Shown here: positions 964 through 51,025 of the stretch, one piece after another
How positions within the stretch are numbered: position 1 is the stretch's first letter
Layout of the letters: every line of letters starts with the position of its first letter
Assembly (NCBI GenBank): GCA_964483035.1
Contig: CAYZZS010000002.1
Location: forward strand, 24,872 to 88,871
Source of the DNA: an uncultured Candidatus Saccharibacteria bacterium
Lineage (GTDB): Bacteria; Patescibacteriota; Saccharimonadia; Saccharimonadales; CAYZZS01
Direction of reading: 5' to 3'
Length of the DNA: 64,000 bases
Program-made: the position numbers and the translations under genes
The notes under the pieces: model-generated
What the model saw: only the letters and a program-made list of their open reading frames with translations
Database searches by the model: none
What the model was told of the DNA's origin: nothing

Positions 964-1078
964 CCATTATTTCAAGGCTTCAACAGGCGTATACTGAAGA
1001 GTGCAGGAGGGGGCTATGACTAATCAGGTGGTTTTTGCGGCAGGATGCTTCTGGGGAGTGCAGTATTAATTCGACCAG

Positions 1079-1513
1079 GTGCCGGGTGTGCTTGAGACAA
1101 CGGTCGGGTACACTGGCGGGCATACTGACAATCCAACCTATGAAGCAGTCTGCTCGCATGCGACGGGCCATGCTGAGGCAGTGGAGATAGTCTTTGACCC
1201 TGATGTGGTGACATATGAAGTGTTGCTTAAGCACTTCTTTCGGATGCACGATCCTACCCAGTTAAACAGGCAGGGTCCGGATATTGGTGACCAGTACCGT
1301 TCAGCTGTCTTCTATATGAACGATGAGCAAAAGGCGCAAGCTGAGCGAATGATAGAGGCGCTAAGTGCTCAAAATGCGTACGATAAGCCGATTGTAACGA
1401 AACTTGAGCCAGCGGCGGAGTTCTACCCGGCTGAGCCATACCACCAAAAGTACACAGAGCGAACTGGCCATGGTATGTGCCATGTATCGTATGCTCCTGT
1501 AGCCTCATCTTGA
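1079..1513 (+). CDS. msrA: Peptide methionine sulfoxide reductase MsrA. The ORF as called lacks the N-terminus: the true start is ATG 1016 with AGGAGG RBS, but an in-frame TAA at 1067-1069 separates the 17-codon GCFWG segment.
   Basis: Strong similarity to MsrA core (PGV..T.VGYTGG, HDPT, YHQ.Y). Upstream in the same frame: MTNQVVFAAGCFWGVQY-TAA-FDQ then continues. Confidence 0.8.
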   Translation: MPGVLETTVGYTGGHTDNPTYEAVCSHATGHAEAVEIVFDPDVVTYEVLLKHFFRMHDPTQLNRQGPDIGDQYRSAVFYMNDEQKAQAERMIEALSAQNAYDKPIVTKLEPAAEFYPAEPYHQKYTERTGHGMCHVSYAPVASS

Positions 1514-1587
1514 GCGAGGAGAGGCCGATCCTGATTAGCTGATAGGTTGGTTGCGCGAGCGGCTCTCATATATGCTATAGTGCTGTC

Positions 1588-2487
1588 ATGGCTAAGAAGA
1601 CTACAACATCGACCAGGAGTGCGAAAAAAACAGGAAAAAAGACAACCAATAAAAATAAAACTGCAGCAGTCGCCGTCGATTCGGTAAAAAAACAGCGCAG
1701 TGGCGGCTTGTTTGGTTTTCTGAAGGGAAATGAGGCGGGTCTCAATAAATTTAATTTAGTACTCTCATTCCTGTACTTGGTGCAGGCTATAGCGATTATC
1801 GTGCTAAGTAAGCAGGCGAGTCTACCGGTGACAAGTATGTACGGTACAGAGGATAGTCTAGCTACCGGAAGCGGGGAGATAGTGTCAGCCCAGGCGATAC
1901 GTCATTTGTTTGATGTTAGCTTGCCGTACATATTGGCTGTCATGCTGCTTATTCCGGCGGTATTGCACTTTGTTTCAGCAAATGTATTCGGGGCGCAGTA
2001 TAAGAAGGATGTGCAGGTTGGCCGCAACCGGTTCCGCTGGATAGACTATAGCGTCGGCGGAGGGCTTGCGCTATTGGTGGTAGCTATGCTGAGCGGTGTT
2101 CGGGATATCGCAAGTCTGCTGATGATAGCGGGTTTGAATATCGGGGTCTATCTGCTGGCTTCTATCATTGAATCAGCTGGTGCTCGCGGTGATGCGCGTA
2201 CCGCTCGCCTACGAAATGCAGGACTGCTGCTTGGCGCGCTACCACTTGTTACGATCGCATTGTACGCTATTAGTAGTCTGACGTATGGTGACGATGCGCT
2301 GCCGCTGTATCTCTATGGCTTATATGCGGTTACGATATTGCTTGGGCTGTTTTTGGCCTCGCGGTTGCTGGCGTTTTCAAGGAGTAAAGTCACTGATTAT
2401 CCATATGCAGATCGTCAGTTTAGCCTAGCGGGCTTGCTGGCGAAGAGTGCGGTAGCCTGGATAGTGTTTGCCGGTCTGCTCCGCTAA
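1588..2487 (+). CDS. Heliorhodopsin-like 7TM retinal protein with Lys/Thr-rich basic N-terminal extension
   Basis: Seven predicted TM helices and a long TM1-TM2 loop. Motifs FRWIDYS (TM3) and AKSAVAW (TM7, putative Schiff-base Lys) match my recollection of heliorhodopsin 48C12 (FRWVEYS, AKSALAW); LNKFN...LVQ and ALPVT also align. Confidence 0.6.
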   Translation: MAKKTTTSTRSAKKTGKKTTNKNKTAAVAVDSVKKQRSGGLFGFLKGNEAGLNKFNLVLSFLYLVQAIAIIVLSKQASLPVTSMYGTEDSLATGSGEIVSAQAIRHLFDVSLPYILAVMLLIPAVLHFVSANVFGAQYKKDVQVGRNRFRWIDYSVGGGLALLVVAMLSGVRDIASLLMIAGLNIGVYLLASIIESAGARGDARTARLRNAGLLLGALPLVTIALYAISSLTYGDDALPLYLYGLYAVTILLGLFLASRLLAFSRSKVTDYPYADRQFSLAGLLAKSAVAWIVFAGLLR

Positions 2488-3120
2488 ATGCCAAAAGAGC
2501 ATTTGATTTTTGATTTTGACGGGACGCTAGCGGATAGTCTTCCGCTCTTGATTGCGCTGTTCTATGAAATCACCAAGAGCGAACAGCAATTCAGTGCAGC
2601 TGAGATTGAGCGGCTAAGGAATATGCCGGTGCAGCGTGTTATCAAGGAGCTTGGGGTGCCGCTTTACCGCGTGCCGCGACTGCTGATACACGGGCGAAAC
2701 CAGCTGACGAAACATATAGATGACTTGGCGGCAATTGATGGTATTGTGCCAGTGGTAAAAAAGCTGCACAAGAAAGGGTTTAAGCTATATATTGTCAGCT
2801 CAAACAGTACGCATAATATCCAGCTGTTCTTGGATAGGTATGGAATCGGGGCGTATTTCGAGCATATCTACGGCGGCGTGGGTATATTCGGTAAAGCTTC
2901 AGCGTTGAAGTCTGTTATGAAGCGGGAGAAGTTAGATCGGGGCAGCTGTGTGTATATCGGCGATGAGACGCGGGATATCGAAGCAGCTCGCAAGGCAGGA
3001 GTGGCAGCTATATCTGTTAGCTGGGGGTTCAATGGAAGGCAAATTTTACAAGAGTATCAGCCGGATGCGCTGGTTGATCTGCCAGGGGATCTTCTAAAGG
3101 CGACAGAAGCAGTACAATAG
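2488..3120 (+). CDS. HAD-superfamily hydrolase (phosphoglycolate phosphatase-like)
   Basis: DFDGTLADS motif I, SSNS and GDETRD motifs; start overlaps the stop of the upstream gene (TAAATG). Confidence 0.8.
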   Translation: MPKEHLIFDFDGTLADSLPLLIALFYEITKSEQQFSAAEIERLRNMPVQRVIKELGVPLYRVPRLLIHGRNQLTKHIDDLAAIDGIVPVVKKLHKKGFKLYIVSSNSTHNIQLFLDRYGIGAYFEHIYGGVGIFGKASALKSVMKREKLDRGSCVYIGDETRDIEAARKAGVAAISVSWGFNGRQILQEYQPDALVDLPGDLLKATEAVQ

Positions 3121-3126
3121 AGAGAT

Positions 3127-4377
3127 ATGGAGTCAGTGCGGATAGAAAAGCTAGTGCATGGCGGTCAGGGCATAGGGCAACTGGCTGATGGCCGTAAGGT
3201 GTTCGTATGGAATGCCTTACCTGATGAGTTGGTTTCGGTGCGGTTGACGCGAAAGCGCCGGGACTACGCCGAAGGTATCGCGGAAGGGGTGCTGGAGTCG
3301 TCACCGTATCGCATCGAGCCCAGGGATGAGGCATATTTAAGTACCAGTCCGTGGCAGGTTATGGATTTTGAAGCAGAAAATCGCTATAAGCGGGATATTT
3401 TGATTGAAGCCATGCAGCGTGAGCAGGTAGAGCAGATACCGGGTGACGTACAGTTTTACACTGATGGACGGCAGTGGCAGTACCGCAATAAGATGGAGTA
3501 TAGCTTTTGGGCGGATGATGATGGCCTGCATCTAGCACTGTTTTATCGCGGCAACCACGGTAAGCGGATTGTGGCTGGCAGCAGCATTGCCATGCCGGAA
3601 ATTGATGCAACAGCTCACAAGGTGCTGGCTATACTCAACGAAAACGGCATACGCGGCTCGCAATTAAAAACACTTGTACTGCGCTGCAATCAGGCCGGCG
3701 ATGTCGCAGCTGCGTTGTATGTCAAAGACGAGTCATTCCCGGATATTAAAAAGCTGGCCGAAGTAGGCAAGGGTATCGCTGTGTGCTACTCCAATCCGAA
3801 AAGTCCGGCTAGTGTGCTAACGCGGGAGCTGTACCGCTACGGTGATGTAGCATTAAGCGATACGCTCCTAGGTGTCACAATTACCTATGACGTGTTTTCG
3901 TTTTTCCAGGTCAATCTGCCGGTGTTTGAGACGGTACTGAAGCGTATAGATGAATTCAGCGGCGAGGCAGAAAATATCATTGATATGTATAGCGGCGTCG
4001 GGACTATCGGCGTGGCGCTGGGCGGCGCGAAAACTATCGTGGAGAGCGATCCGCATAACATTCCTTTCGCTCAGCGCAATGCAGAGACGCATGGCATTAA
4101 AGTAGTGCATGCTACGGCGGAACAGGCGCTCGACCGCATTACGGATTACGCTACGATTATTGTCGATCCGCCGCGGGCCGGTCTGCATGCTGATTTGGTT
4201 TCACGGCTGAATGAGGTAAAGCCCCGGCAGATTATGTACCTCAGCTGCAATCCAGCTACTCAGGCTCGGGACATTGCTCGATTACAGGAGAATTTCCGGC
4301 TGCGAATACTGGAGGGCTTTAACTTTTTTCCGCGCACCCCGCATATCGAATCTCTGGCTGTGCTTGAACGGTTGTAA
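3127..4377 (+). CDS. RNA (uracil-C5)-methyltransferase, RlmD/RumA/TrmA family (TRAM + SAM MTase), no Fe-S cysteine cluster
   Basis: DMYSGVGTIG motif I, VDPPRAGL motif IV, YLSCNPAT catalytic-Cys motif; N-terminal TRAM-like beta domain. Confidence 0.85.
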   Translation: MESVRIEKLVHGGQGIGQLADGRKVFVWNALPDELVSVRLTRKRRDYAEGIAEGVLESSPYRIEPRDEAYLSTSPWQVMDFEAENRYKRDILIEAMQREQVEQIPGDVQFYTDGRQWQYRNKMEYSFWADDDGLHLALFYRGNHGKRIVAGSSIAMPEIDATAHKVLAILNENGIRGSQLKTLVLRCNQAGDVAAALYVKDESFPDIKKLAEVGKGIAVCYSNPKSPASVLTRELYRYGDVALSDTLLGVTITYDVFSFFQVNLPVFETVLKRIDEFSGEAENIIDMYSGVGTIGVALGGAKTIVESDPHNIPFAQRNAETHGIKVVHATAEQALDRITDYATIIVDPPRAGLHADLVSRLNEVKPRQIMYLSCNPATQARDIARLQENFRLRILEGFNFFPRTPHIESLAVLERL

Positions 4378-22398: not shown

Positions 22399-22809
22399 AT
22401 GGACCAGTCTGTAACTCCTTCTACAAATCCGCAACCACAAGCCAAAAAAGTACTGCTCGTCGAAGACGATGACAGTCTGGCAAATGTCTATCAAACCCGC
22501 TTGCAAGCCGAAGGCTTTAATGTCAAGCGAGTACCAAATGGCGAAGACGCGCTGGCGTCAGCCATGGAATTCCGCCCGGATTTGATTCTGCTAGATGTGA
22601 TGATGCCGAAGGTGAACGGCTTTGATGTACTGGATATTCTTAGGAATACGCCGGACACGGCTAATGTCAAGGTGGTGATGCTCACGGCACTTAGCCAGGA
22701 GAGTGATCGGCAGCGTGCGACAGAGCTAGGGGTTGATGACTACATGGTCAAATCCCAGGTTGTTATTGCGGATGTTGTAGAGAGAATCAAAAACCATTTA
22801 AATCAGTAG
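22399..22809 (+). CDS. Stand-alone response regulator receiver domain (CheY-like)
   Basis: LLVEDDD acidic pocket, DLILLDVMMP phospho-Asp, conserved T and K positions; no output domain. Confidence 0.85.
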   Translation: MDQSVTPSTNPQPQAKKVLLVEDDDSLANVYQTRLQAEGFNVKRVPNGEDALASAMEFRPDLILLDVMMPKVNGFDVLDILRNTPDTANVKVVMLTALSQESDRQRATELGVDDYMVKSQVVIADVVERIKNHLNQ

Positions 22810-25005: not shown

Positions 25006-25533
25006 CTAGCGCCCAACGAAGTTATTCCAGTCTTCGTCAGCCCGTCGCCGCGCCTCTAGCCAGGTCATGCCGGGGTACTGATCGATGAGGGCCCGGGCGT
25101 TATTGCGAAGTCTGGCGTCCAGATCGGCCAGCTCACCTTTTGGTAGGTGGGACTTTATGTATTCGTCTAAATCGGCATCAATATGTGCCCGTGCCTGCTC
25201 CGGTGTCATCCATGGGTTTTCTTTGTTGTAGGCCTGCGCCCGTTCGCGCAATTTCTGTTCAATATTAGCAAGCCAGTCTTCTCCGCTAAGTGCTTTAATC
25301 TGGCCGCTCTTGTAACGGTTCTGATACTTTGCCCGATATAGCTTATCCAGCAGCTCCTTAAGCAGGGACTTTTCGTTTGAGGTTAATCGCGCATGGGTGC
25401 CTTGGGCTTTTATCTTGGCAATAACCTCTTTGGCACTAGGTCTAATAGAGGCAGAGGGGCGCTCCGAAACCTGTGTGACGGATATTTTCTTCTTTGGTTT
25501 GCTGCTGGTTGATTTCTTGGCTTTGGCGTTCAT
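25006..25533 (-). CDS. Hypothetical protein with basic K/S-rich N-terminus and two 'ARxxAD.DW.NFV'-type repeats
   Basis: Motifs EQARAHIDADLDEYIKS and LEARRRADEDWNNFVGR match the repeat family of the adjacent large gene. Confidence 0.55.
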   Translation of the reverse strand: MNAKAKKSTSSKPKKKISVTQVSERPSASIRPSAKEVIAKIKAQGTHARLTSNEKSLLKELLDKLYRAKYQNRYKSGQIKALSGEDWLANIEQKLRERAQAYNKENPWMTPEQARAHIDADLDEYIKSHLPKGELADLDARLRNNARALIDQYPGMTWLEARRRADEDWNNFVGR

Positions 25534-25568: not shown

Positions 25569-27818
25569 TTACCACGGAACATTACCGTTTGCGTCCATAG
25601 GTACGCTGTTATAGAGTGCACCCGCGATGTCTACAGCATTTTCAGGCGTGACACCTGGTGCACTAGCCGGTAGGTTAGCGGCGATTTGCTGGAGTCGCTG
25701 TTCATGAGCCGCTGCTTCTTGGGCTGCAACGAAATTCTGGAAATTCGTATCAGCGATGGCTCTTGCTTCAGCCCAGCTTGAAGCCTGTCCGCTTGTTAGG
25801 AGTTCCGTTGCATTTTTGTCAAGTGCTTCGTCAAGCTGCGCTAATTCGGGACTGGCGTTTGGACGGGTGAGGAAGTTTTCCCAGTCTCGGTCTGCCATGG
25901 CTCGGGCGACATGCGGAGCATACCCTTGGCTGACATACACTTGCGCATTTTCATTGAGGGCGTGCTCTAGCCTTGCTAAGTCATCCTGTGCTTTTAGGAC
26001 TTCAGGGGGCAGCTCATCTTGGTTCGTATTGATTGGTGCTGCCGGGTCGGTCGTGATGGCGGGTGCAGGAGTAGACACCGGCTGCTCCTGCCAGGGGTTT
26101 GCCTCTAGCCATGGATCCGGTGATGATGATTGCTGTGGTGGTTCCTGGGGCTGCACCCACGGTTCTCCGGGTTGATTTACCCAGGGTTGTTGCTGCCATG
26201 ACTCTTGCTGCTTCTGCGCTTCCTGTTCCTGCTGCCACTGTTGCTGTGCCTGTCCGACCGGGTCAACCCATGAGGGCTGCTGTGCTACATTGTAGTCTAC
26301 GGCGATGCTATTGGCTTCGGCGGCCGCGCGATCGGCTGCATATCGCTCTTCTTGCTCTCGTGCCTTTAGAACTTCGGGGGGCAGTTCATCCTGATTCATA
26401 TTGATTGGAGCTGTCGGATCGGATGTTATTTCCGGCGCAGGGACGGTTACCGGCTGTTGTGAGCGGACGAAATCGTTGAATTCGCGGTCGGCCTGGGCTC
26501 GCGCGTCATCCCAGCTCATACCGGTCTCGCGTGATATTTCAGCTGCCCGGTCGTCCATCCTTTTGATGAAGGTATTCCACTCGTCTTCGACCCGATACCT
26601 GGCTTCACTTTCAGGTACGCCCGGGTTTTTCCGCATGTACTCCTCGGTCTGTTTATTCAGATGGTCTTCGAGCTTGGCGAGGTCATCGCTGCTTTTGCCG
26701 CTCTCTACATCGCCAACGAAATTCTGGAAGTCAACCTCAGCCTGGGCCCGTGCCTTGTTAAAGTCATCGCCGTACATTTCGGGGAAGCGGCGCATGAGCT
26801 CACGAGCGTTGTAATCCAGCCGGGCGGAGAGTTCAGCCAGCGGATCCATACCAAGGCCGGTATTGAGATGCGCCGGGTTGTCTTCGTTGTGATGGTTTGG
26901 CGTCACGCTGACCGGATTGCCCGCGGCAGCTTCGGCTTGCGCCCTTTCCCAGTCGCTGACCGGCTGATCTGTCCCCGTGAGTAATCCTGCTTTCGCATCT
27001 TCAATGATACGGTCCGGGGAAGGTCCGCCTCGCAGTTCGTCTTTCGCATCTTCGATTATTTGATCAGGTGAGCGAGACGAGCTATTGTCTGTGAATGTGT
27101 GGTTACGAAAGCCGTCACTGGCCGGGAGGTTGAAAGGGTTGTCGTCGATGAGCGGCTTGGCGGCAACATCGTAATCCTGGGCTGCCGCATTGGCTTGTGC
27201 GGCTTTCTCGGCTGGGGTCAATTGCCGTGCGCCGCTTGGTGACGGGCCATCCTGGTCCGTTACGGATACTTTGACCGGATTACCGACCGCGGCTTCTTCC
27301 TGGGCCTTATCGTCGCGGCCCAGCAGTCGGTCGGTGATAGGATCAGGGATTGATGTCGGCTGTTGCCTGTAGGGGGAGTTGCCGGCCGGTGAACTCTCCT
27401 GGGCATTCAAAGCGTTGCGGTTAGTGCCCAAATCGGCGGCGGCTGCCGGCTGGCTGGTGCTGCTTCTGGACTCCTGCCTCACTTCGGAATTCGAGTTTGA
27501 GCTGCGATCCCCGGAGGCGACAGGCGCAGTGTAACTGGTCCGGCGGCTTGCTTCTTCTTTGGCGCGGCGTTCGACTTCCGATTCAGTGCGCACGCCGCCC
27601 TTGCCGGGCTGTTCAGCGGCGCCTAACCCGGCTTCTTCCGGACCGCCTTTTTTCGGAATATTGCTCTTAGCAGTAGTGCTGCTGTCGGAATTGTCTGCCT
27701 GGCTGTCATCTTCGGGCTGTCTCATGATGGCCTGTGACCAGTCATCGATGCGGCGGACTACACGGAAGTCATCGCCGTTGCTACCATTATTATCTGTTGA
27801 GTTGTTGTCCGGTTCCAT
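25569..27818 (-). CDS. Large low-complexity repeat protein (749 aa) with at least five roughly 40-aa 'L..L...L..NA.EL....P.M....ARAxADxDWxNFV' repeats, S/N/Q-rich N-terminal half and Q/W-rich segment
   Basis: Repeats at aa ~325-370, 378-420, 433-453, 612-652, 658-700; additional internal duplications (SPDxIIEDAK x2; PAPxIT.DP.APIN.NQDELPPEVLKA x2). Confidence 0.6.
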   Translation of the reverse strand: MEPDNNSTDNNGSNGDDFRVVRRIDDWSQAIMRQPEDDSQADNSDSSTTAKSNIPKKGGPEEAGLGAAEQPGKGGVRTESEVERRAKEEASRRTSYTAPVASGDRSSNSNSEVRQESRSSTSQPAAAADLGTNRNALNAQESSPAGNSPYRQQPTSIPDPITDRLLGRDDKAQEEAAVGNPVKVSVTDQDGPSPSGARQLTPAEKAAQANAAAQDYDVAAKPLIDDNPFNLPASDGFRNHTFTDNSSSRSPDQIIEDAKDELRGGPSPDRIIEDAKAGLLTGTDQPVSDWERAQAEAAAGNPVSVTPNHHNEDNPAHLNTGLGMDPLAELSARLDYNARELMRRFPEMYGDDFNKARAQAEVDFQNFVGDVESGKSSDDLAKLEDHLNKQTEEYMRKNPGVPESEARYRVEDEWNTFIKRMDDRAAEISRETGMSWDDARAQADREFNDFVRSQQPVTVPAPEITSDPTAPINMNQDELPPEVLKAREQEERYAADRAAAEANSIAVDYNVAQQPSWVDPVGQAQQQWQQEQEAQKQQESWQQQPWVNQPGEPWVQPQEPPQQSSSPDPWLEANPWQEQPVSTPAPAITTDPAAPINTNQDELPPEVLKAQDDLARLEHALNENAQVYVSQGYAPHVARAMADRDWENFLTRPNASPELAQLDEALDKNATELLTSGQASSWAEARAIADTNFQNFVAAQEAAAHEQRLQQIAANLPASAPGVTPENAVDIAGALYNSVPMDANGNVPW
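25976..26066 (-). repeat. Intragenic direct repeat copy (roughly 85% identical to 26363-26453)
   Basis: Encodes PVSTPAPAITTDPAAPINTNQDELPPEVLKA; the nucleotide similarity to the second copy is visible by eye. Confidence 0.6.
26363..26453 (-). repeat. Intragenic direct repeat copy (pairs with 25976-26066)
   Basis: Encodes PVTVPAPEITSDPTAPINMNQDELPPEVLKA. Confidence 0.6.
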
Positions 27819-28015: not shown

Positions 28016-29506
28016 ATGTCAGCATCACATCACCATCCCGAAACACACCACAATGTACCGCCGGTCGTGGCGGAATATATGAGCACGCATCGCCACAAAG
28101 AGCTGTATAACGATGTAATGTATGCCGGCTGGGCTGAAAAGACCAAGATAGGCAAGGATGGGCAGCCGATGCCGTTCTCAGAGGATGCCGTATATGCCTT
28201 TGTTGACCAAGAGTCAGGCAATGGTATATACGGTGTTTTTGATGGTGCCGGCGGCATGGATGATGGCAGGGGCGCTTCCGAAGCGGCCCGCCAGTATCTT
28301 CATGAGTACGCCATGCAGCACGGTGATACGGTGCCATCGAATCCGCGCCAGAACATTGAAAACATAGTAGAAGAGATGGTAGACAGGGTGGCTGCGGTGA
28401 GTAAAGGCGCTACTACCGGCGTGATTGCGATGGTGCATAAGGACCGAGAGGGCGGACAGAAGCTCGCTTGGGCGGGGGTGGGTGACTCGCTGCTATTTGT
28501 TATCAGAGGAGGCAGGGCATATCAGCTGAACCGCGAAGAGACGCAGCGGCAGGAGATGTTGGAGCAAGGAAAGTCCGAGGCAGAGGCAGATAGGCATGGG
28601 AATGTTATTACAAACGCGCTCGGCTCTGATACTTACACAGGGTTAAATCAAACTGATGTTATCCAGCTCTATCCCGGCGACCAGATTTTGTTAGTGTCGG
28701 ATGGAGTAACCGGTGATACCTCGAAGCAGCGGTTGCGCGGCGGAGATAATATGGCGGCCATAGAAGAGGTAATGAACGCACCGCATGCGACGCCGCAGCA
28801 AAAGGCCGAGGCGCTGATTGAGGCCGCAACCAAGAATGATGACCGTAGCGCCATGATTATTCAGATTGACGGGCCGCAACCTTCGGCAGAGGCGGTCCGC
28901 GAAGGTGATCGGAGCAGTCAGCGTGTCGGTAGGGCAAGTGGCGTTGTTGCGGTCGGTAGTCTTCTAGAGTCGGTTCCGGTTAATGAGCGGAAGGTCGCCC
29001 ATACGATGCGCGAGTATCAATTACACCGTGGCGCCTTGAAGTTGCCAGAAGAGGCCGTAATGGATATTGGTAAGGCGCGCGAGGAGTATGGCGTCAATGG
29101 TATGGTGCTTGCTGAGATTACGCTACCGGCTGCTGAGCATAGTCAGTCTGAACCAAAGATTGGCCTGGTTGATTTTGGGGCGCTAGCTACTGAGCGGCCG
29201 ACTCCTGTTAAGTATGTTGACGGTAGACCGGCCGAGGAGTTGGGCGTAACACACTCGCGGTACGCCCTCATAGCTTTAAATTATATGGGCGAGGGTGACC
29301 GCGCTCCATTCCTGGAGTTAAGCAAGGCTGAAATGACCATTGGTCGTCAAAATATACACCCCATGCTGGGGCTTACGAGTACGCCAGACGGTTCACTGAT
29401 TTCCCGGAGGCACTTTACCGTTGAGCAGAGTGAGGACGGAAAGGGGTTAACGATCAGGGATCACTCCACCAACGGAACACGTATCAAGGTTGCAGCCCGC
29501 GGTTAG
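28016..29506 (+). CDS. PP2C-family Ser/Thr protein phosphatase fused to C-terminal FHA domain
   Basis: PP2C motifs (GVFDGAGG, LLVSDGV, metal-binding D residues); C-terminal FHA signature (TIGRQ...SRRHFTV...RDHSTNGTRI). Confidence 0.8.
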   Translation: MSASHHHPETHHNVPPVVAEYMSTHRHKELYNDVMYAGWAEKTKIGKDGQPMPFSEDAVYAFVDQESGNGIYGVFDGAGGMDDGRGASEAARQYLHEYAMQHGDTVPSNPRQNIENIVEEMVDRVAAVSKGATTGVIAMVHKDREGGQKLAWAGVGDSLLFVIRGGRAYQLNREETQRQEMLEQGKSEAEADRHGNVITNALGSDTYTGLNQTDVIQLYPGDQILLVSDGVTGDTSKQRLRGGDNMAAIEEVMNAPHATPQQKAEALIEAATKNDDRSAMIIQIDGPQPSAEAVREGDRSSQRVGRASGVVAVGSLLESVPVNERKVAHTMREYQLHRGALKLPEEAVMDIGKAREEYGVNGMVLAEITLPAAEHSQSEPKIGLVDFGALATERPTPVKYVDGRPAEELGVTHSRYALIALNYMGEGDRAPFLELSKAEMTIGRQNIHPMLGLTSTPDGSLISRRHFTVEQSEDGKGLTIRDHSTNGTRIKVAARG

Positions 29507-36084: not shown

Positions 36085-36468
36085 ATGGCGAACATTCTCT
36101 TAATCGAACCGGATCGTATCCTAAGCAGGCTCTATGCGGATGCCTTGCGCGCCAATGGTCATGAGGTGGCGAGCTGCCGAAGTGCTCAAGGTGCGATACA
36201 GCTTGCTGATGAGCGGCTGCCTGATTTGATTCTGCTTGAATTACAACTGCCCCGGCATAACGGAGTAGAGTTTCTCTACGAGCTCAGGTCATATACCGAG
36301 TGGCAGCGTATTCCGGTAGTCCTGCTGAGTTCTGTGCCACCGACCGAAGTGCTTTCGCCAGTGCTCTGGGATCAGCTTGGGGTAGCAGCGTATTACTACA
36401 AGCCGCGCGCTACGCTGGCCTCACTGGTGCAGGCGGTCAATAACGTGTTGCCGTTGCCGGTCACATGA
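36085..36468 (+). CDS. Pseudo-receiver (REC-fold) protein with Glu at the phospho-acceptor position
   Basis: Receiver-like LLIEPD...DLILLELQLP: canonical DD pocket reduced and phospho-Asp replaced by Glu. Confidence 0.6.
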   Translation: MANILLIEPDRILSRLYADALRANGHEVASCRSAQGAIQLADERLPDLILLELQLPRHNGVEFLYELRSYTEWQRIPVVLLSSVPPTEVLSPVLWDQLGVAAYYYKPRATLASLVQAVNNVLPLPVT

Positions 36469-46413: not shown

Positions 46414-46605
46414 AGTATGTTCTCCCTCCTTATACCCCCAGAATTATTAATCGTTTAAATATTTATTAATCAGGGGTAGTAAATGCGCTCTCCACCTCAA
46501 TTGGAAAAAAGCACAAATATCAGCATAAACCGTATAGAAATTAGTGTCAAGACTCTTAAGCTAACACCATATGTAGCGGGCCGTGAAAAACATAAAAACA
46601 ATGCT

Positions 46606-47211
46606 ATGATTTATTATGAAATGAAACGCGAGATTGAAGCCAAATTTTTGGACGCCGATTTTGATGCGGTCCGGGAAAAACTACAAGAGTTAAGCGCAAA
46701 ATGCGAGCAGTCGATGCAGCTGAAGCGTTACGTCATTATCGATGATACTCAGGGGTACATGCGCTCCAAGGGTACATTTATCCAGGTTCAGGATGATGGT
46801 AAAGACGTGACGTTGGCATACAAGAAGCTGCAGCGCGTCAGTACGGATGCAGTGCAGGATACTGCTGTCACGGTGAACTCCTTTGAGGCGGTCATCAATA
46901 TATTCCTGGAGCTGGGGCTTCGGGTGCGCTCGCACCAGGAATCCAAGCGCGAAACCTGGAGTCTGGGCGATGCGAAGGTTCACTTGGATCAGTGGCCGTG
47001 GCTGAAGCCGCTTATCACCATCTCAGGGCGCAATGAGCGCCAGATCGAAGAGATTGCCGGTGAGCTGGGCTATCAGTGGAGTGATGCCGTGTACGGTGAT
47101 ATTATTGCCGCCTACCGCGTACAGTATCCGATACTGGCTGACAAGAAGGATATAACATCGCTGCCAATTATGAAGTTCAACAGCGCTCCGCCAAACTTCT
47201 TCAACGTCTAA
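46606..47211 (+). CDS. CYTH-domain protein (CyaB-like triphosphate tunnel metalloenzyme)
   Basis: YEMKREIEAKF N-terminal ExExK signature; start chosen at in-frame ATG 46606 (ORF tool start 46483 is probably an extension). Confidence 0.6.
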   Translation: MIYYEMKREIEAKFLDADFDAVREKLQELSAKCEQSMQLKRYVIIDDTQGYMRSKGTFIQVQDDGKDVTLAYKKLQRVSTDAVQDTAVTVNSFEAVINIFLELGLRVRSHQESKRETWSLGDAKVHLDQWPWLKPLITISGRNERQIEEIAGELGYQWSDAVYGDIIAAYRVQYPILADKKDITSLPIMKFNSAPPNFFNV

Positions 47212-47312: not shown

Positions 47313-48410
47313 ATGGAAGAGCCTACTACTGCCAATGAGATCAAAGAGCAAGCTGCGCCGGAAGAGGTGCAGGATGAGTCAAAAGAAACTTTGACCGCGG
47401 CGATTTTACAGGATTTGCCGGCGGCGAACGAGGACGGATATCAGGAAACGGATATCTTTGCCTGGGCGAATAATCTGGTGCAATATGTCGAGGACCTCAA
47501 GATAAACCTGTATTTCTTCAATAGGAATTATATTGTCTACAAGACCAAGCTGGCTGGCGAGGTGGCGCGGCAGCTCAGGCCGCTATTTATCGATGAAATC
47601 CTGGAGTACATCTTGGGCGGCATAGAGAAGGGGCTGGTGGTTCGCGGCTTCGAGGAAGCAGAATCTGAGGAATTGGTACTACAGCGCACGCGCGTTAAGA
47701 ATGTCGACAAGCTGGTTGAGGTGCTCAACTGGCTTAAGACCCAGTCGCACGAGATCGAGACGTTCGTTGAGGAGGAGCATGACCTAAAGCGTATCAAGGG
47801 GGTTATAGCCCAGTGTACCGCCGAGGGTTTGGAGGCACCGTTTTACCTGATCAAAAGCCTGCCGACCACCCAGGTCATGAAAGGGCACACTGCCTGGATG
47901 CTGAAGGACGGGACATTCAAGCCCTTCGATAATATGAGCGCGCTGAAGATACCCGGAGAAAACCAACTACTAGTAGTTGGACAGGACCTGTTTGTCTTTA
48001 ATCAGGCAAAACTGAAGTCACTGTTTGGTTATGACGCCAAGGCCGCCAGTATCGCTGCTAAGAAGGTGGCAGAGATTGAGGCGAACTTCAAACTCAGCTT
48101 TAGTGAGGGTGCTAGCTTGCAGTCTTTGGTCAAGGGTAAGCCGGCGGCTATTAAGAAACTGCAGAAGATTGAGCCCAGCCTGGTCAAGCAGCAGGACCTG
48201 ATTGACCATTCGGATGAGCTGGGGGTGGGGCTGATGACCGATGATGACGGCTCGATAATTATCATGGATGACAAAGATCTGGTGCGGTTCGTGAACCTGC
48301 TTAATGACGACTATATCGAGTCGCCAATGACCGGCCAGCGGTATGAAATCATCAAGAAGAGGCCGCTCAAGCCAGCGGACGAAGAAGAGCTGCTCAAACA
48401 AGTTCTGTAG
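47313..48410 (+). CDS. Hypothetical acidic protein (365 aa)
   Basis: No recognised motif; convergent with the next gene. Confidence 0.45.
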   Translation: MEEPTTANEIKEQAAPEEVQDESKETLTAAILQDLPAANEDGYQETDIFAWANNLVQYVEDLKINLYFFNRNYIVYKTKLAGEVARQLRPLFIDEILEYILGGIEKGLVVRGFEEAESEELVLQRTRVKNVDKLVEVLNWLKTQSHEIETFVEEEHDLKRIKGVIAQCTAEGLEAPFYLIKSLPTTQVMKGHTAWMLKDGTFKPFDNMSALKIPGENQLLVVGQDLFVFNQAKLKSLFGYDAKAASIAAKKVAEIEANFKLSFSEGASLQSLVKGKPAAIKKLQKIEPSLVKQQDLIDHSDELGVGLMTDDDGSIIIMDDKDLVRFVNLLNDDYIESPMTGQRYEIIKKRPLKPADEEELLKQVL

Positions 48411-49698: not shown

Positions 49699-50433
49699 AT
49701 GCAAAAGCGATTGATTCGGGAGTTTGAAGCGATAGCCTTTGACTTTGACGGCACGCTAGCTGATACCGAGCGGACACACATGGCAGCGAGGATCGAAGCG
49801 TACCGACAGCTTGGGGACGAGCTTGGTGATGAGCGCTACGCTGCTATTTCCGTGCGCGTTCACGAAGCGGCATCGCTGCACGGCAGTCATCCGGAGTCTA
49901 TCAACGCCTGGATTATGAGGCAGGCCGGTATTGTCAGTGATGCTCAGGATGAGCGGGTGCACGCTGTCGTAGAGCGAAAAAATCAGTTGTACTGGGAGAT
50001 TACAGCTAGGGGCATGGATGAGGTCCCGGGCGCGGTCCGGTTTGTCCGCAAGGCAGCAGTTCGCCGTCCCGGGAAACTGGCGATCGTCACGACTGCACAC
50101 CGGCAGCAGGAGGTTATGCCGTTTCTGATGCGCCATAAACTGAATCGGACATTTCCTGATGCGAGCATTGTAGCGAGAGAAGACGTTGAGCACCTGAAGC
50201 CGCACCCGGAGGGCTATGAGCGCGCTGCAGAAATATTGCGAGTCAAGTCAGCGGAGCGACTGCTGGTCATTGAGGACAGTCCGAGGGGTATTGAGTCAGC
50301 GAAAGCTGCCGGAGCCTTCGTGGTTGGCATAATGACCACACGCACCGCTGCTGAGTTGGCCGGAGCTGACGTGCAGCATAAACCAAACGCCATTGCCCGC
50401 AATTACGATGAGCTGGCAGAAATGGTGCTATGA
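49699..50433 (+). CDS. HAD-superfamily hydrolase (beta-phosphoglucomutase-like subfamily IA)
   Basis: FDFDGTLADTE motif I, TTAH, EDSPRGIESAKAAGA motif. Confidence 0.75.
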   Translation: MQKRLIREFEAIAFDFDGTLADTERTHMAARIEAYRQLGDELGDERYAAISVRVHEAASLHGSHPESINAWIMRQAGIVSDAQDERVHAVVERKNQLYWEITARGMDEVPGAVRFVRKAAVRRPGKLAIVTTAHRQQEVMPFLMRHKLNRTFPDASIVAREDVEHLKPHPEGYERAAEILRVKSAERLLVIEDSPRGIESAKAAGAFVVGIMTTRTAAELAGADVQHKPNAIARNYDELAEMVL

Positions 50434-50443
50434 TTAGTGCAAT

Positions 50444-51025
50444 ATGGCGGTAATACTGCTCCGACACGGTGAAAGTCAGGCAAACCACAGTGGGGTTTTT
50501 GCTGGGTCGCAAGCTGATCCCAGTCTGACTGACCGGGGTAGAATCCAGGCATTCAACGCCGGATGGCGGCTGAATAAACTGGCAAAGTTTGATCGGATAA
50601 TAACTTCGCCTGCCAGCCGAACCCGAGAGACGGCGGATATCGTCAAGCGAGAGATCGGGGTGTGGGATGTGCAAATTGATCCGCGGCTTGTGGAATATGA
50701 CACTGGGGCCATGACTGGCCGCTGTCCCGAGGAGTTGGGCGAGCGCTCTATTCACACGGTTCCTGGGGCAGAGAATGTGTACGGCTTTGTAAACCGCACG
50801 GTTGAAGCCGTGCTCGATCATCAGGATGTGCCGGTTAATACATTGATAATCGCGCATCGGGGGACCAGTATGGTGGTTGCCGGACTGCTAAAGGGGCTTG
50901 ATCCGCAAGATCTCTATGACCATGCTCCCTCCCTTGAGAATGGGGAGTTTATGAGTGTGGATGTGGCGGCATTGGGCTCTGTTGTGCTAAGCCTGTCAAC
51001 AATGGATCGACCAGCCGTCACATGA
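50444..51025 (+). CDS. Histidine phosphatase family protein (phosphoglycerate-mutase-like)
   Basis: LLRHGESQAN catalytic RHG motif, second His in AHRGT. Confidence 0.8.
   Translation: MAVILLRHGESQANHSGVFAGSQADPSLTDRGRIQAFNAGWRLNKLAKFDRIITSPASRTRETADIVKREIGVWDVQIDPRLVEYDTGAMTGRCPEELGERSIHTVPGAENVYGFVNRTVEAVLDHQDVPVNTLIIAHRGTSMVVAGLLKGLDPQDLYDHAPSLENGEFMSVDVAALGSVVLSLSTMDRPAVT

Follow-up and report, generated by a model that had tools for sequence, protein, structure and literature searches.

A divergent Saccharibacteria heliorhodopsin with aspartate at the counterion position and an abutting HAD phosphatase gene

Does an unusually divergent heliorhodopsin (HeR) gene of an uncultured Candidatus Saccharibacteria bacterium still encode a retinal-binding light sensor, and on which partner would such a sensor act? 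We addressed this question for a 64,000-nucleotide (nt) stretch of contig CAYZZS010000002.1 (positions 24,872 to 88,871; here called the window, with coordinates counted from its first letter), in which an open reading frame (ORF) of 299 amino acids (aa), hereafter the query, lies between the gene for the methionine sulfoxide reductase MsrA and that for a small phosphatase of the HAD family. What HeRs do in the cell is poorly understood for the most part, and experiments have established no more than three partner enzymes. A genome of ~1 Mb offers few genes in which a partner could hide, and here HeR and one small phosphatase share an apparently leaderless two-gene unit; if the connection is true, phosphatase control would be a directly testable HeR function in a minimal-genome organism. 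Our preferred reading, to which we assign a probability of about 60%, is that the query is a non-pumping photosensor that scavenges its retinal and may regulate the co-transcribed phosphatase.

The initial annotation of the window had proposed a seven-transmembrane protein of the HeR family with a long loop between the first two transmembrane helices (TM1 and TM2) and had pointed to two HeR-like motifs, FRWIDYS and AKSAVAW. Profile searches bore out the family assignment. The complete PF18761 profile (positions 1-242 of 242) matched residues 52-298 with E = 6.9e-43 and 147.2 bits, far above its cut-off of 26.7, and the NCBIfam HeR equivalog NF038020 scored 140.6 bits (cut-off 100). The closest PDB sequences found by phmmer were those of HeR 48C12 (6UH3/6SU3, E = 6.6e-23) and of the Thermoplasmatales HeR (TaHeR), both only ~25% identical to the query, including for the latter its E108D mutant 7CLJ, which was among the best matches in structure as well as in sequence. 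HMMER paired FRWIDYS (residues 149-155) and AKSAVAW (residues 285-291) with FRWVEYS and AKSALAW of 48C12 (6su3/6uh3). An AlphaFold2 model, for which the input alignment consisted of 60 relatives bearing the Schiff-base lysine, reached a mean predicted local distance difference test (pLDDT) score of 88.7 and a predicted template modelling score of 0.82; it contained the seven helices, and the long first loop was modelled as a beta-hairpin at residues 78-111 (strands 78-88 and 100-111). When this model was compared with the PDB using Foldseek, the top ten matches were all HeRs, with template modelling scores on the target of 0.83-0.91 and root-mean-square deviations (rmsd) of 1.9-2.8 Å; type-1 rhodopsins gave scores of ~0.68 or less with rmsd >4.5 Å. 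Lysines and arginines numbered 18 on the N-terminal tail and the BC, DE and FG loops versus 4 on the other side, a count that fits an inverted topology with a cytoplasmic N-terminus. The ORF encodes a genuine HeR, a conclusion that family and fold both support and that we regard as practically certain. The query shares with 48C12 (6SU3, 6UH3) and TaHeR (6IS6) the family, the fold, the long beta-hairpin loop and the lysine of the seventh helix (TM7). The gene is an unremarkable member of an established family, from a phylum in which HeR had been found before, and the basic classification is unchanged; the protein is also an unusually divergent HeR, with most of its odd traits common to its clade or genome or published before.

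The surroundings of the Schiff base were mapped using the HMMER alignment to 6su3 together with a MAFFT alignment of the relatives with 48C12. The numbering of the 48C12 chain was checked, and its residues H23, H80, E107, S237 and K241 correspond to Y63, H127, D153, G282 and K286 of the query; in TM6 the two alignments lie one residue apart (F206 paired with G253 or L252), and no claim was drawn there. The replacement of the counterion glutamate by aspartate and of H23 by tyrosine, both read from the sequence in the initial annotation, were recovered by these alignments, and the second cavity histidine is retained. Relative to 48C12, whose numbering we use for positions from here on, the query carries E107D, S76P (P123), S111G (G157), S237G (G282), H23Y, E230D and W173L, and its local TM7 motif reads GLLAK, not SxxxK. 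Residues R104/W105/Y108, H80, N16, N101, Y92, E149, Q26 and W246 are common to 48C12, TaHeR and the query (where they are R150/W151/Y154, H127, N56, N147, Y138, E195, Q66 and W291), and together with Y226 they make up the residues that Kovalev et al. listed as structurally important and that the query keeps (PMC7049168).

HeRs of reference genomes provided a background for these substitutions. A genome search built on a six-sequence alignment, with a pattern that demanded the lysine, returned canonical HeRs only. All 80 HeRs examined from reference genomes, 33 of which are from Saccharibacteria, have H23, H80, E107, S111, S237 and K241, and 71 have S76. The canonical Saccharimonadia HeRs (Chiriac et al. 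2022, PMC9166423) come from the same phylum as the query and often have the same chromosomal position and the same leaderless promoter type; yet SxxxK, E107, S111 and H23/H80 are present in 33/33, including several that occupy the query's position. Aspartate as counterion was found in eight of the 60 Lys-bearing relatives of the query's own clade compared with none of the 80 reference HeRs. In a rough neighbour-joining tree it is scattered over about eight distinct positions, and P0002 and P0009, which lie nearest to the query, are of the Glu/Lys type. Glycine at position 237 is shared by 20 of the 60 Lys-bearing relatives, and tyrosine, phenylalanine or leucine at position 23 is common in the clade. 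We dropped the idea that aspartate at 107 goes with loss of H23, since residues other than histidine at 23 are also common among Glu/Lys members. Serine or threonine stands at position 111 in all eight other Asp/Lys representatives as well as in L088, L090 and L095, which leaves the query and its 99% identical twin (contig L001) as the only natural HeRs in our sample that are predicted to combine an aspartate counterion with the lack of a hydroxyl at position 111. As aligned, the aspartate is only part of a wider remodelling in which S76, S111 and S237 have been replaced as well.

The equivalent mutants of known HeRs suggest what this remodelling might do. Changing the counterion from glutamate to aspartate in 48C12 (E107D) and TaHeR (E108D) left the absorption maximum unchanged, and the latter protein was crystallised as 7CLJ; Tanaka et al. 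showed that the hydroxyl of TaHeR S112 compensates for the shorter aspartate in E108D and that S78, too, is hydrogen-bonded to it. In the same work the conservation of S111 was given as 97%, E108D, S112A, S78A and S234A as well as the double mutants still formed pigment, and S112A/E108D absorbed at 559 nm compared with 542 nm for the wild type (bioRxiv 10.1101/2020.06.24.168591). Whereas a pair of serines holds the aspartate in these mutants, the query has glycine and proline at the S112 and S78 positions, so that compensation of the mutant type would be unavailable to it; the closest tested analogue is S112A/E108D. If a pigment forms, we expect that the counterion interaction would be weaker, the absorption would probably be red-shifted, and the cavity could be filled with water or an anion. 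The colour and Schiff-base pKa of the query would then be a natural test of the counterion-compensation model.

To place these residues within the family, an exhaustive HMMER search was used that returned 1137 cluster representatives; alignment and residue counts are confined to the best 150 (153 nearest). Beyond the 99% twin, the closest relative is no more than ~40% identical among the matches listed. Among GTDB species representatives, a pattern search requiring the lysine gave no homologue above 34% identity, and a single-sequence scan of genome contigs with the query found no relative. The HeR genes of the query and the twin contig differ by two synonymous and three non-synonymous changes, too few for dN/dS. 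The Schiff-base lysine is lost in 93 of the 153 nearest representatives, which have A, Q, V, T, S or another residue in its place. Such Lys-less relatives (P0005, P0007, P0013, P0014 and P0016 are examples) are full length, align unambiguously in TM7 with no lysine within four columns, and conserve N16, Q26, Y92, R104, W105, E149, E230 and W246 to the same degree as their Lys-bearing counterparts, which suggests that a retinal-independent function exists in the clade. An acidic residue at the counterion position was present in 52 of the 60 Lys-bearing relatives versus 20 of the 93 Lys-less ones (p = 5e-16). Because lysine and carboxylate are coupled across the relatives in this way and the query has both, its chromophore site is probably still in use, and we judge it likely that the query binds retinal. 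The structurally important residues that the query shares with 48C12 and the pigment formed by the TaHeR mutants point the same way. A log-odds classifier of Lys-bearing versus Lys-less proteins, with the lysine and counterion columns left out, gave the query an intermediate score of -5.6, compared with -0.6 +/- 12.7 for the Lys-bearing and -15.3 +/- 14.6 for the Lys-less class; since the classes were poorly separated, this score was not used as evidence.

Published surveys kept only proteins with SxxxK (Chiriac 2022, PMC9166423; Bulzu 2021), and a filter of this kind would exclude both the query, with its GLLAK motif, and its Lys-less relatives. The literature we searched held no report of retinal-free HeR descendants, although such reports may exist. 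Loss of the Schiff-base lysine with retention of the seven-helix fold is known from Rh-noK, haloarchaeal Lys-less opsins and freshwater FArhodopsins; these resemble the query's relatives in that respect but are type-1 rhodopsins, and the query itself keeps its lysine. The Lys-less relatives suggest that HeRs, like type-1 rhodopsins, have retinal-free descendants. It is a speculative and, on balance, improbable extension of this that a large radiation of HeR-derived proteins in Saccharibacteria and other members of the candidate phyla radiation (CPR) is shifting to a retinal-independent role, with the query as a natural intermediate that has kept the lysine and a shortened counterion and lost the stabilising serines, and with the HeR-phosphohydrolase operon as a membrane-anchored regulatory module.

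A retinal-binding query would probably need an external supply. The initial annotation had found no blh or crt genes for retinal synthesis within the 64 kb, and Pfam scans of 60 window ORFs agreed with it, giving no match to Blh/BCD, SQS_PSY (phytoene synthase), Amino_oxidase (phytoene desaturase) or Lycopene_cycl in a window that covers ~6% of the ~1-Mb genome. In Saccharimonadia HeRs are common, one survey having counted 80 occurrences (PMC9166423). Saccharibacteria that bear rhodopsins have been reported without blh, the retinal was proposed to come from their hosts, and HeR has been described as a rapid binder of added retinal (PMC9296517). For Saccharimonadales, then, the literature already covers the presence of HeR, the lack of retinal synthesis and the uptake of retinal. 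The SacR type-1 rhodopsins of the same phylum (Jaffe et al. 2022, PMC9296517) share this need for external retinal but belong to another family, being outward proton pumps with the opposite orientation.

We then considered how the gene is expressed and with what. Just upstream of it, the initial annotation had noted a TATAGT -10 element only 6 nt from the ATG and raised the possibility of a leaderless start. The element is present and, with the TG that precedes it, makes an extended -10. The same arrangement, TGnTAnnnT with its last base 6-7 nt ahead of the start codon, was found in ~29 distinct Saccharibacteria HeR loci against a background frequency of ~0.001 per position; actinobacterial and other HeR loci carry GGAGG instead. 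The HeR start codon is well supported by this spacing and by the homologues, which begin MAKK.., MATTKK.. and similar. Across the window, TAnnnT occurs 5-8 nt upstream of 21 of 62 gene starts (~4 expected) and a core resembling a Shine-Dalgarno (SD) sequence upstream of nine of 62, so that leaderless-type initiation looks like a genome-wide habit, normal for the organism. The HeR promoter escaped a scan for the sigma-70 consensus because its -35 region is weak, and predicted terminators in the window were no commoner than in shuffled sequence. Downstream, the TAAATG junction cited earlier as a sign of translational coupling between HeR and HAD is present as described. The sequence signals make it likely that HeR has its own promoter, that HAD, which lacks both promoter and SD, is co-transcribed with it and that the TrmA-like gene after it has its own TACAAT; no terminator-like site was predicted between the HAD and TrmA-like genes, and read-through downstream may occur. 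At another locus, L007 (2067-3062), P0002 is annotated in the database with a start 43 codons too early (MEYIFAQ...); a TGtTATACT 6 nt before an internal MAKTTTTTKK start at 2196 indicates the true start.

The protein encoded after HeR resembles phosphoglycolate phosphatases. Its best NCBIfam match, PRK13225, reached 128 bits where the cut-off is 368, and no equivalog-level identity is assigned; its nearest PDB entries are described as 'putative phosphoglycolate phosphatase' or as predicted phosphatases, and the catalytic motifs I (FDFDGTLADS) and IV (GDETRD) are intact. In at least 13 lineages the gene directly after HeR belongs to a single HAD subfamily (33-53% identical, 203-215 aa). The junction ranges from a 1-nt overlap to a gap of 15 nt in ten of these lineages and measures 45-66 nt in three (L017, L091 and L093), and the tight form (-1 to 15 nt) is retained between lineages whose HeRs are only ~30% identical. 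Motif I is intact in 8/8 aligned orthologues and motif IV in five of the seven long enough to include it (the sequence is GDLATD in L018 and GNEILD in L071; L007 is truncated by the contig end). Sampling from the HAD side, we found HeR immediately upstream in five of six long-contig loci. In the sixth, L092 (2656-4127), a HAD orthologue stands without HeR, and a 281-aa NTP_transferase overlaps its start; L096 (1720-4124) has the order MsrA-NTP_transferase-HeR-HAD, judging from which HeR was probably lost in L092. Elsewhere the slot after HeR holds a NUDIX hydrolase (L008, 1321-1764; L011, 4900-5337) or, 6 nt after HeR, a histidine phosphatase (L014, 4766-5230). That a single slot is filled by three unrelated phosphohydrolase families hints at a functional pairing. 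The ten groups of HeR operon neighbours distinguished in a published survey that lacked the CPR class do not include HAD (PMC11109279), HeR contexts have been linked to oxidative-stress genes and histidine kinases (PMC8612252), and neither MsrA nor HAD is named in PMC11109279 or PMC8612252. Compared with the published list, the HeR-HAD pairing is new as a partner class.

The other flank is occupied by MsrA, for which we took the start from the 165-aa gene call in the twin contig L001. MsrA adjoins HeR in most of the Saccharibacteria loci examined, on the opposite strand in L018 and L090, and is the most constant HeR neighbour, steadier than HAD; this agrees with the oxidative-stress link proposed for HeRs in the literature (PMC8612252). 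A block MsrA-HeR-(HAD)-TrmA-like-(TM2)-RsmE-PDDEXK-SerRS-S30AE-SecA recurs across Saccharimonadales. Within it the flanking genes are 53-79% identical between loci, compared with 31-37% for HeRs in the same position, which makes HeR a fast-evolving member of the block. The content between MsrA and HeR is not conserved, since L003 has a 174-aa gene there without a homologue in the window or the other loci and L012 a sortase-like ORF on the opposite strand. The loci of the Asp/Lys variants P0030 and P0024 contain MsrA and lack HAD, and gene context suggests that the Asp/Lys clusters are of Saccharibacteria origin. At the P0030 locus (L088, 4398-4876) MsrA is represented by two overlapping PMSR fragments of 78 and 92 aa, which suggests a frameshift or pseudogene.

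Taken together, we propose that the query would bind all-trans retinal taken up from outside, its lineage making none, and would link it to K286 through a protonated Schiff base, for which D153 would serve as counterion. It would most likely be non-pumping, as are other bacterial HeRs, and probably a slow-cycling light sensor that touches and modulates a partner in the cytoplasm. The foremost candidate for this partner is the HAD phosphatase, predicted to be translated from the same leaderless mRNA, and the neighbouring MsrA may tie the system to light-induced oxidative damage. Our analysis establishes the family, the fold, the residue mapping, the operon layout and the conserved promoter and junction; retinal binding, the lack of pumping, the shift in colour and the partnership with HAD or MsrA are inferred. 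There is precedent for enzymes encoded in HeR operons being regulated by HeRs, namely glutamine synthetase, photolyase and an ABC transporter (PMC9529153, PMC9769723, PMC11109279). In these systems (AbHeR-glutamine synthetase, TfHeR-photolyase, OcHeR-ABC transporter) HeR is co-transcribed with a soluble or membrane enzyme and direct modulation between the proteins has been proposed; here the partner class would be a HAD phosphatase, and that the query acts through HAD is a tentative suggestion, possible rather than probable.

Several observations weigh against this proposal and lead to other explanations. Lysine is missing from 61% of the nearest relatives, which marks the clade as prone to abandoning the chromophore, and of the seven canonical residues at the Schiff base and its cavity the query has altered five. 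The chromophore site could therefore be decaying, with weak or no retinal binding, a light-independent role, perhaps that of a scaffold or regulator in the membrane, and K286 and D153 as leftovers. Such decay would account for a query that has lost S76, S111, S237 and H23, three of which (S111, S237 and H23) are invariant in the 80 reference HeRs, for the otherwise conserved Lys-less relatives, and for the faster divergence of HeR relative to its flanks; moreover, in another lineage (L004-6) the MsrA-HeR-HAD locus holds a Lys-less version, which at L004 (8001-8837, Ca. Saccharimonadales) is annotated 'heliorhodopsin HeR'. However, lysine and carboxylate, so strongly coupled in the clade, are both retained, the nearest relatives in the tree are Glu/Lys proteins, TaHeR tolerates single and double substitutions at the same serine and glutamate positions and still forms pigment, and the model keeps a normal HeR fold with high confidence. 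We consider decay rather unlikely. A far less probable explanation is that the query is an ion-transporting HeR, for instance a proton transporter like the viral V2HeR3, in which a remodelled, glycine-rich Schiff-base region opens a conduction path; viral HeRs that transport protons are cited in PMC11109279. Replacement of three serines by proline, glycine and glycine could conceivably widen a polar cavity near the Schiff base, but no pumping has been seen in the bacterial HeRs tested to date (PMC11109279), no mapped position in the extracellular half of the query is charged in the MAFFT alignment with 48C12, and the gene context gives no hint of energy conversion.

The output of the sensor raises a separate difficulty, because HAD may stand next to HeR through inherited synteny. 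The gene order of the whole region, MsrA-HeR-HAD-TrmA-RsmE-PDDEXK-SerRS, is conserved, our sample is small, and the HAD-bearing lineages share ancestry. HAD also follows the Lys-less HeR of L004 and occurs without HeR in L092, most Saccharibacteria HeRs have no HAD (it was present in four of 33 in the HeR-sampled set), and small phosphatases are common in this genome (~3 of 62 window genes, ~5%), a frequency that weakens arguments from adjacency. In that case the query would be a functional HeR whose output runs through MsrA and oxidative-stress defence, through a two-component system encoded elsewhere, or through binding of its tail to nucleic acid or acidic lipid. The greater steadiness of MsrA, adjacent even where inverted (L018, L090) and present without HAD beside P0030 and P0024, speaks for this, as do the published HeR contexts with oxidative-stress genes and histidine kinases (PMC8612252) and a PAS-HisKA kinase ~9.4 kb upstream of HeR in the twin contig (L001, 1-582). 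The close junction held across HeRs that have diverged so far, the frequency with which HeR lies directly upstream when loci are sampled by their HAD gene, and the two further phosphohydrolase families in the same slot are less readily explained by inherited order, which we regard as an explanation that could hold but on which we would not rely. Within the window, a second HAD hydrolase (49699-50433, +) is followed by a histidine phosphatase (50444-51025, +); it is similar to the HeR-linked HAD only at motif I.

The Lys/Thr-rich basic tail of 45 aa that had been described ahead of TM1 was confirmed by its composition. Residues 1-45 include 10 lysines, eight threonines, five alanines and four serines, giving an isoelectric point of 11.4 and a net charge of ~+10.5; in the model they form a low-confidence coil (pLDDT 53-58) without secondary structure. 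48C12 lacks such a tail. Most of the 150 nearest relatives, Lys-bearing and Lys-less alike, carry comparable tails, which measure 15-130 aa, and by this comparison the tail is typical of the clade and not special to the query. Only one other window protein has such a basic tail: a protein of 175 aa (25006-25533, -) has a K/S-rich basic N-terminus (MNAKAKKSTSSKPKKK...) that resembles that of HeR. It adjoins a 749-aa protein (25569-27818, -), and neither has a Pfam or PADLOC match. The features of the HeR locus are collected in Table 1.

Table 1. Coordinates of the HeR gene, its mapped codons and signals, and the adjoining genes in the window.
Feature	Position	Strand	Basis or remark
MsrA, peptide methionine sulfoxide reductase	1016..1513	+	Pfam PMSR E = 1.7e-56; directly upstream of HeR
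Extended -10, TGcTATAGT	1573..1581	+	TG 1573-1574, TATAGT 1576-1581, ends 6 nt before HeR ATG; no SD
Heliorhodopsin (HeR) gene	1588..2487	+	ATG start, 299 aa; Pfam, NCBIfam, PDB phmmer, model
Codons 1-45, basic K/T/S/A-rich tail, predicted disordered and cytoplasmic	1588..1722	+	Composition, model
D153 codon GAC, counterion position (E107 of 48C12)	2044..2046	+	HMMER to 6su3, MAFFT
G157 codon, position of 48C12 S111 / TaHeR S112	2056..2058	+	MAFFT mapping
K286 codon AAG, TM7 Schiff-base lysine position (K241 of 48C12)	2443..2445	+	Alignment
TAAATG, HeR stop abutting HAD start	2485..2490	+	Sequence; no SD or promoter for HAD gene
HAD-IA hydrolase, COG0546, phosphoglycolate-phosphatase-like	2488..3120	+	210 aa; HAD_2 E = 6.8e-35
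TACAAT, 8 nt before ATG of next gene	3113..3118	+	Likely separate internal promoter
TrmA-like methyltransferase	3127..4377	+	Gene after HAD

The window as a whole has the character of an ordinary chromosome, with genes for class-I LysRS, MsrA, SecA, RF, FtsEX, CTP synthase, MraW, PBP2, MraY and FtsW; Rfam and tRNA scans found no RNA gene in it. Its SecA is 78-80% identical to proteins of Candidatus Saccharimonadales/Saccharibacteria, and on this basis the organism is a Saccharimonadales bacterium. One SecA match of 79% identity, P0162, is labelled Candidatus Limnocylindrales and probably comes from a mis-binned contig. A KwaB-like protein (47313-48410, +; Pfam KwaB 53.7 bits, PADLOC KwaB E = 6e-18) corresponds to a component of the Kiwa anti-phage system, and the 242-aa ORF just upstream of it (46483-47211, +) matched neither KwaA nor another family. 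Possible signalling components are a PP2C phosphatase that ends in an FHA domain at its C-terminus (28016-29506, +) and two stand-alone response-regulator receiver proteins (22399-22809, + and 36085-36468, +).

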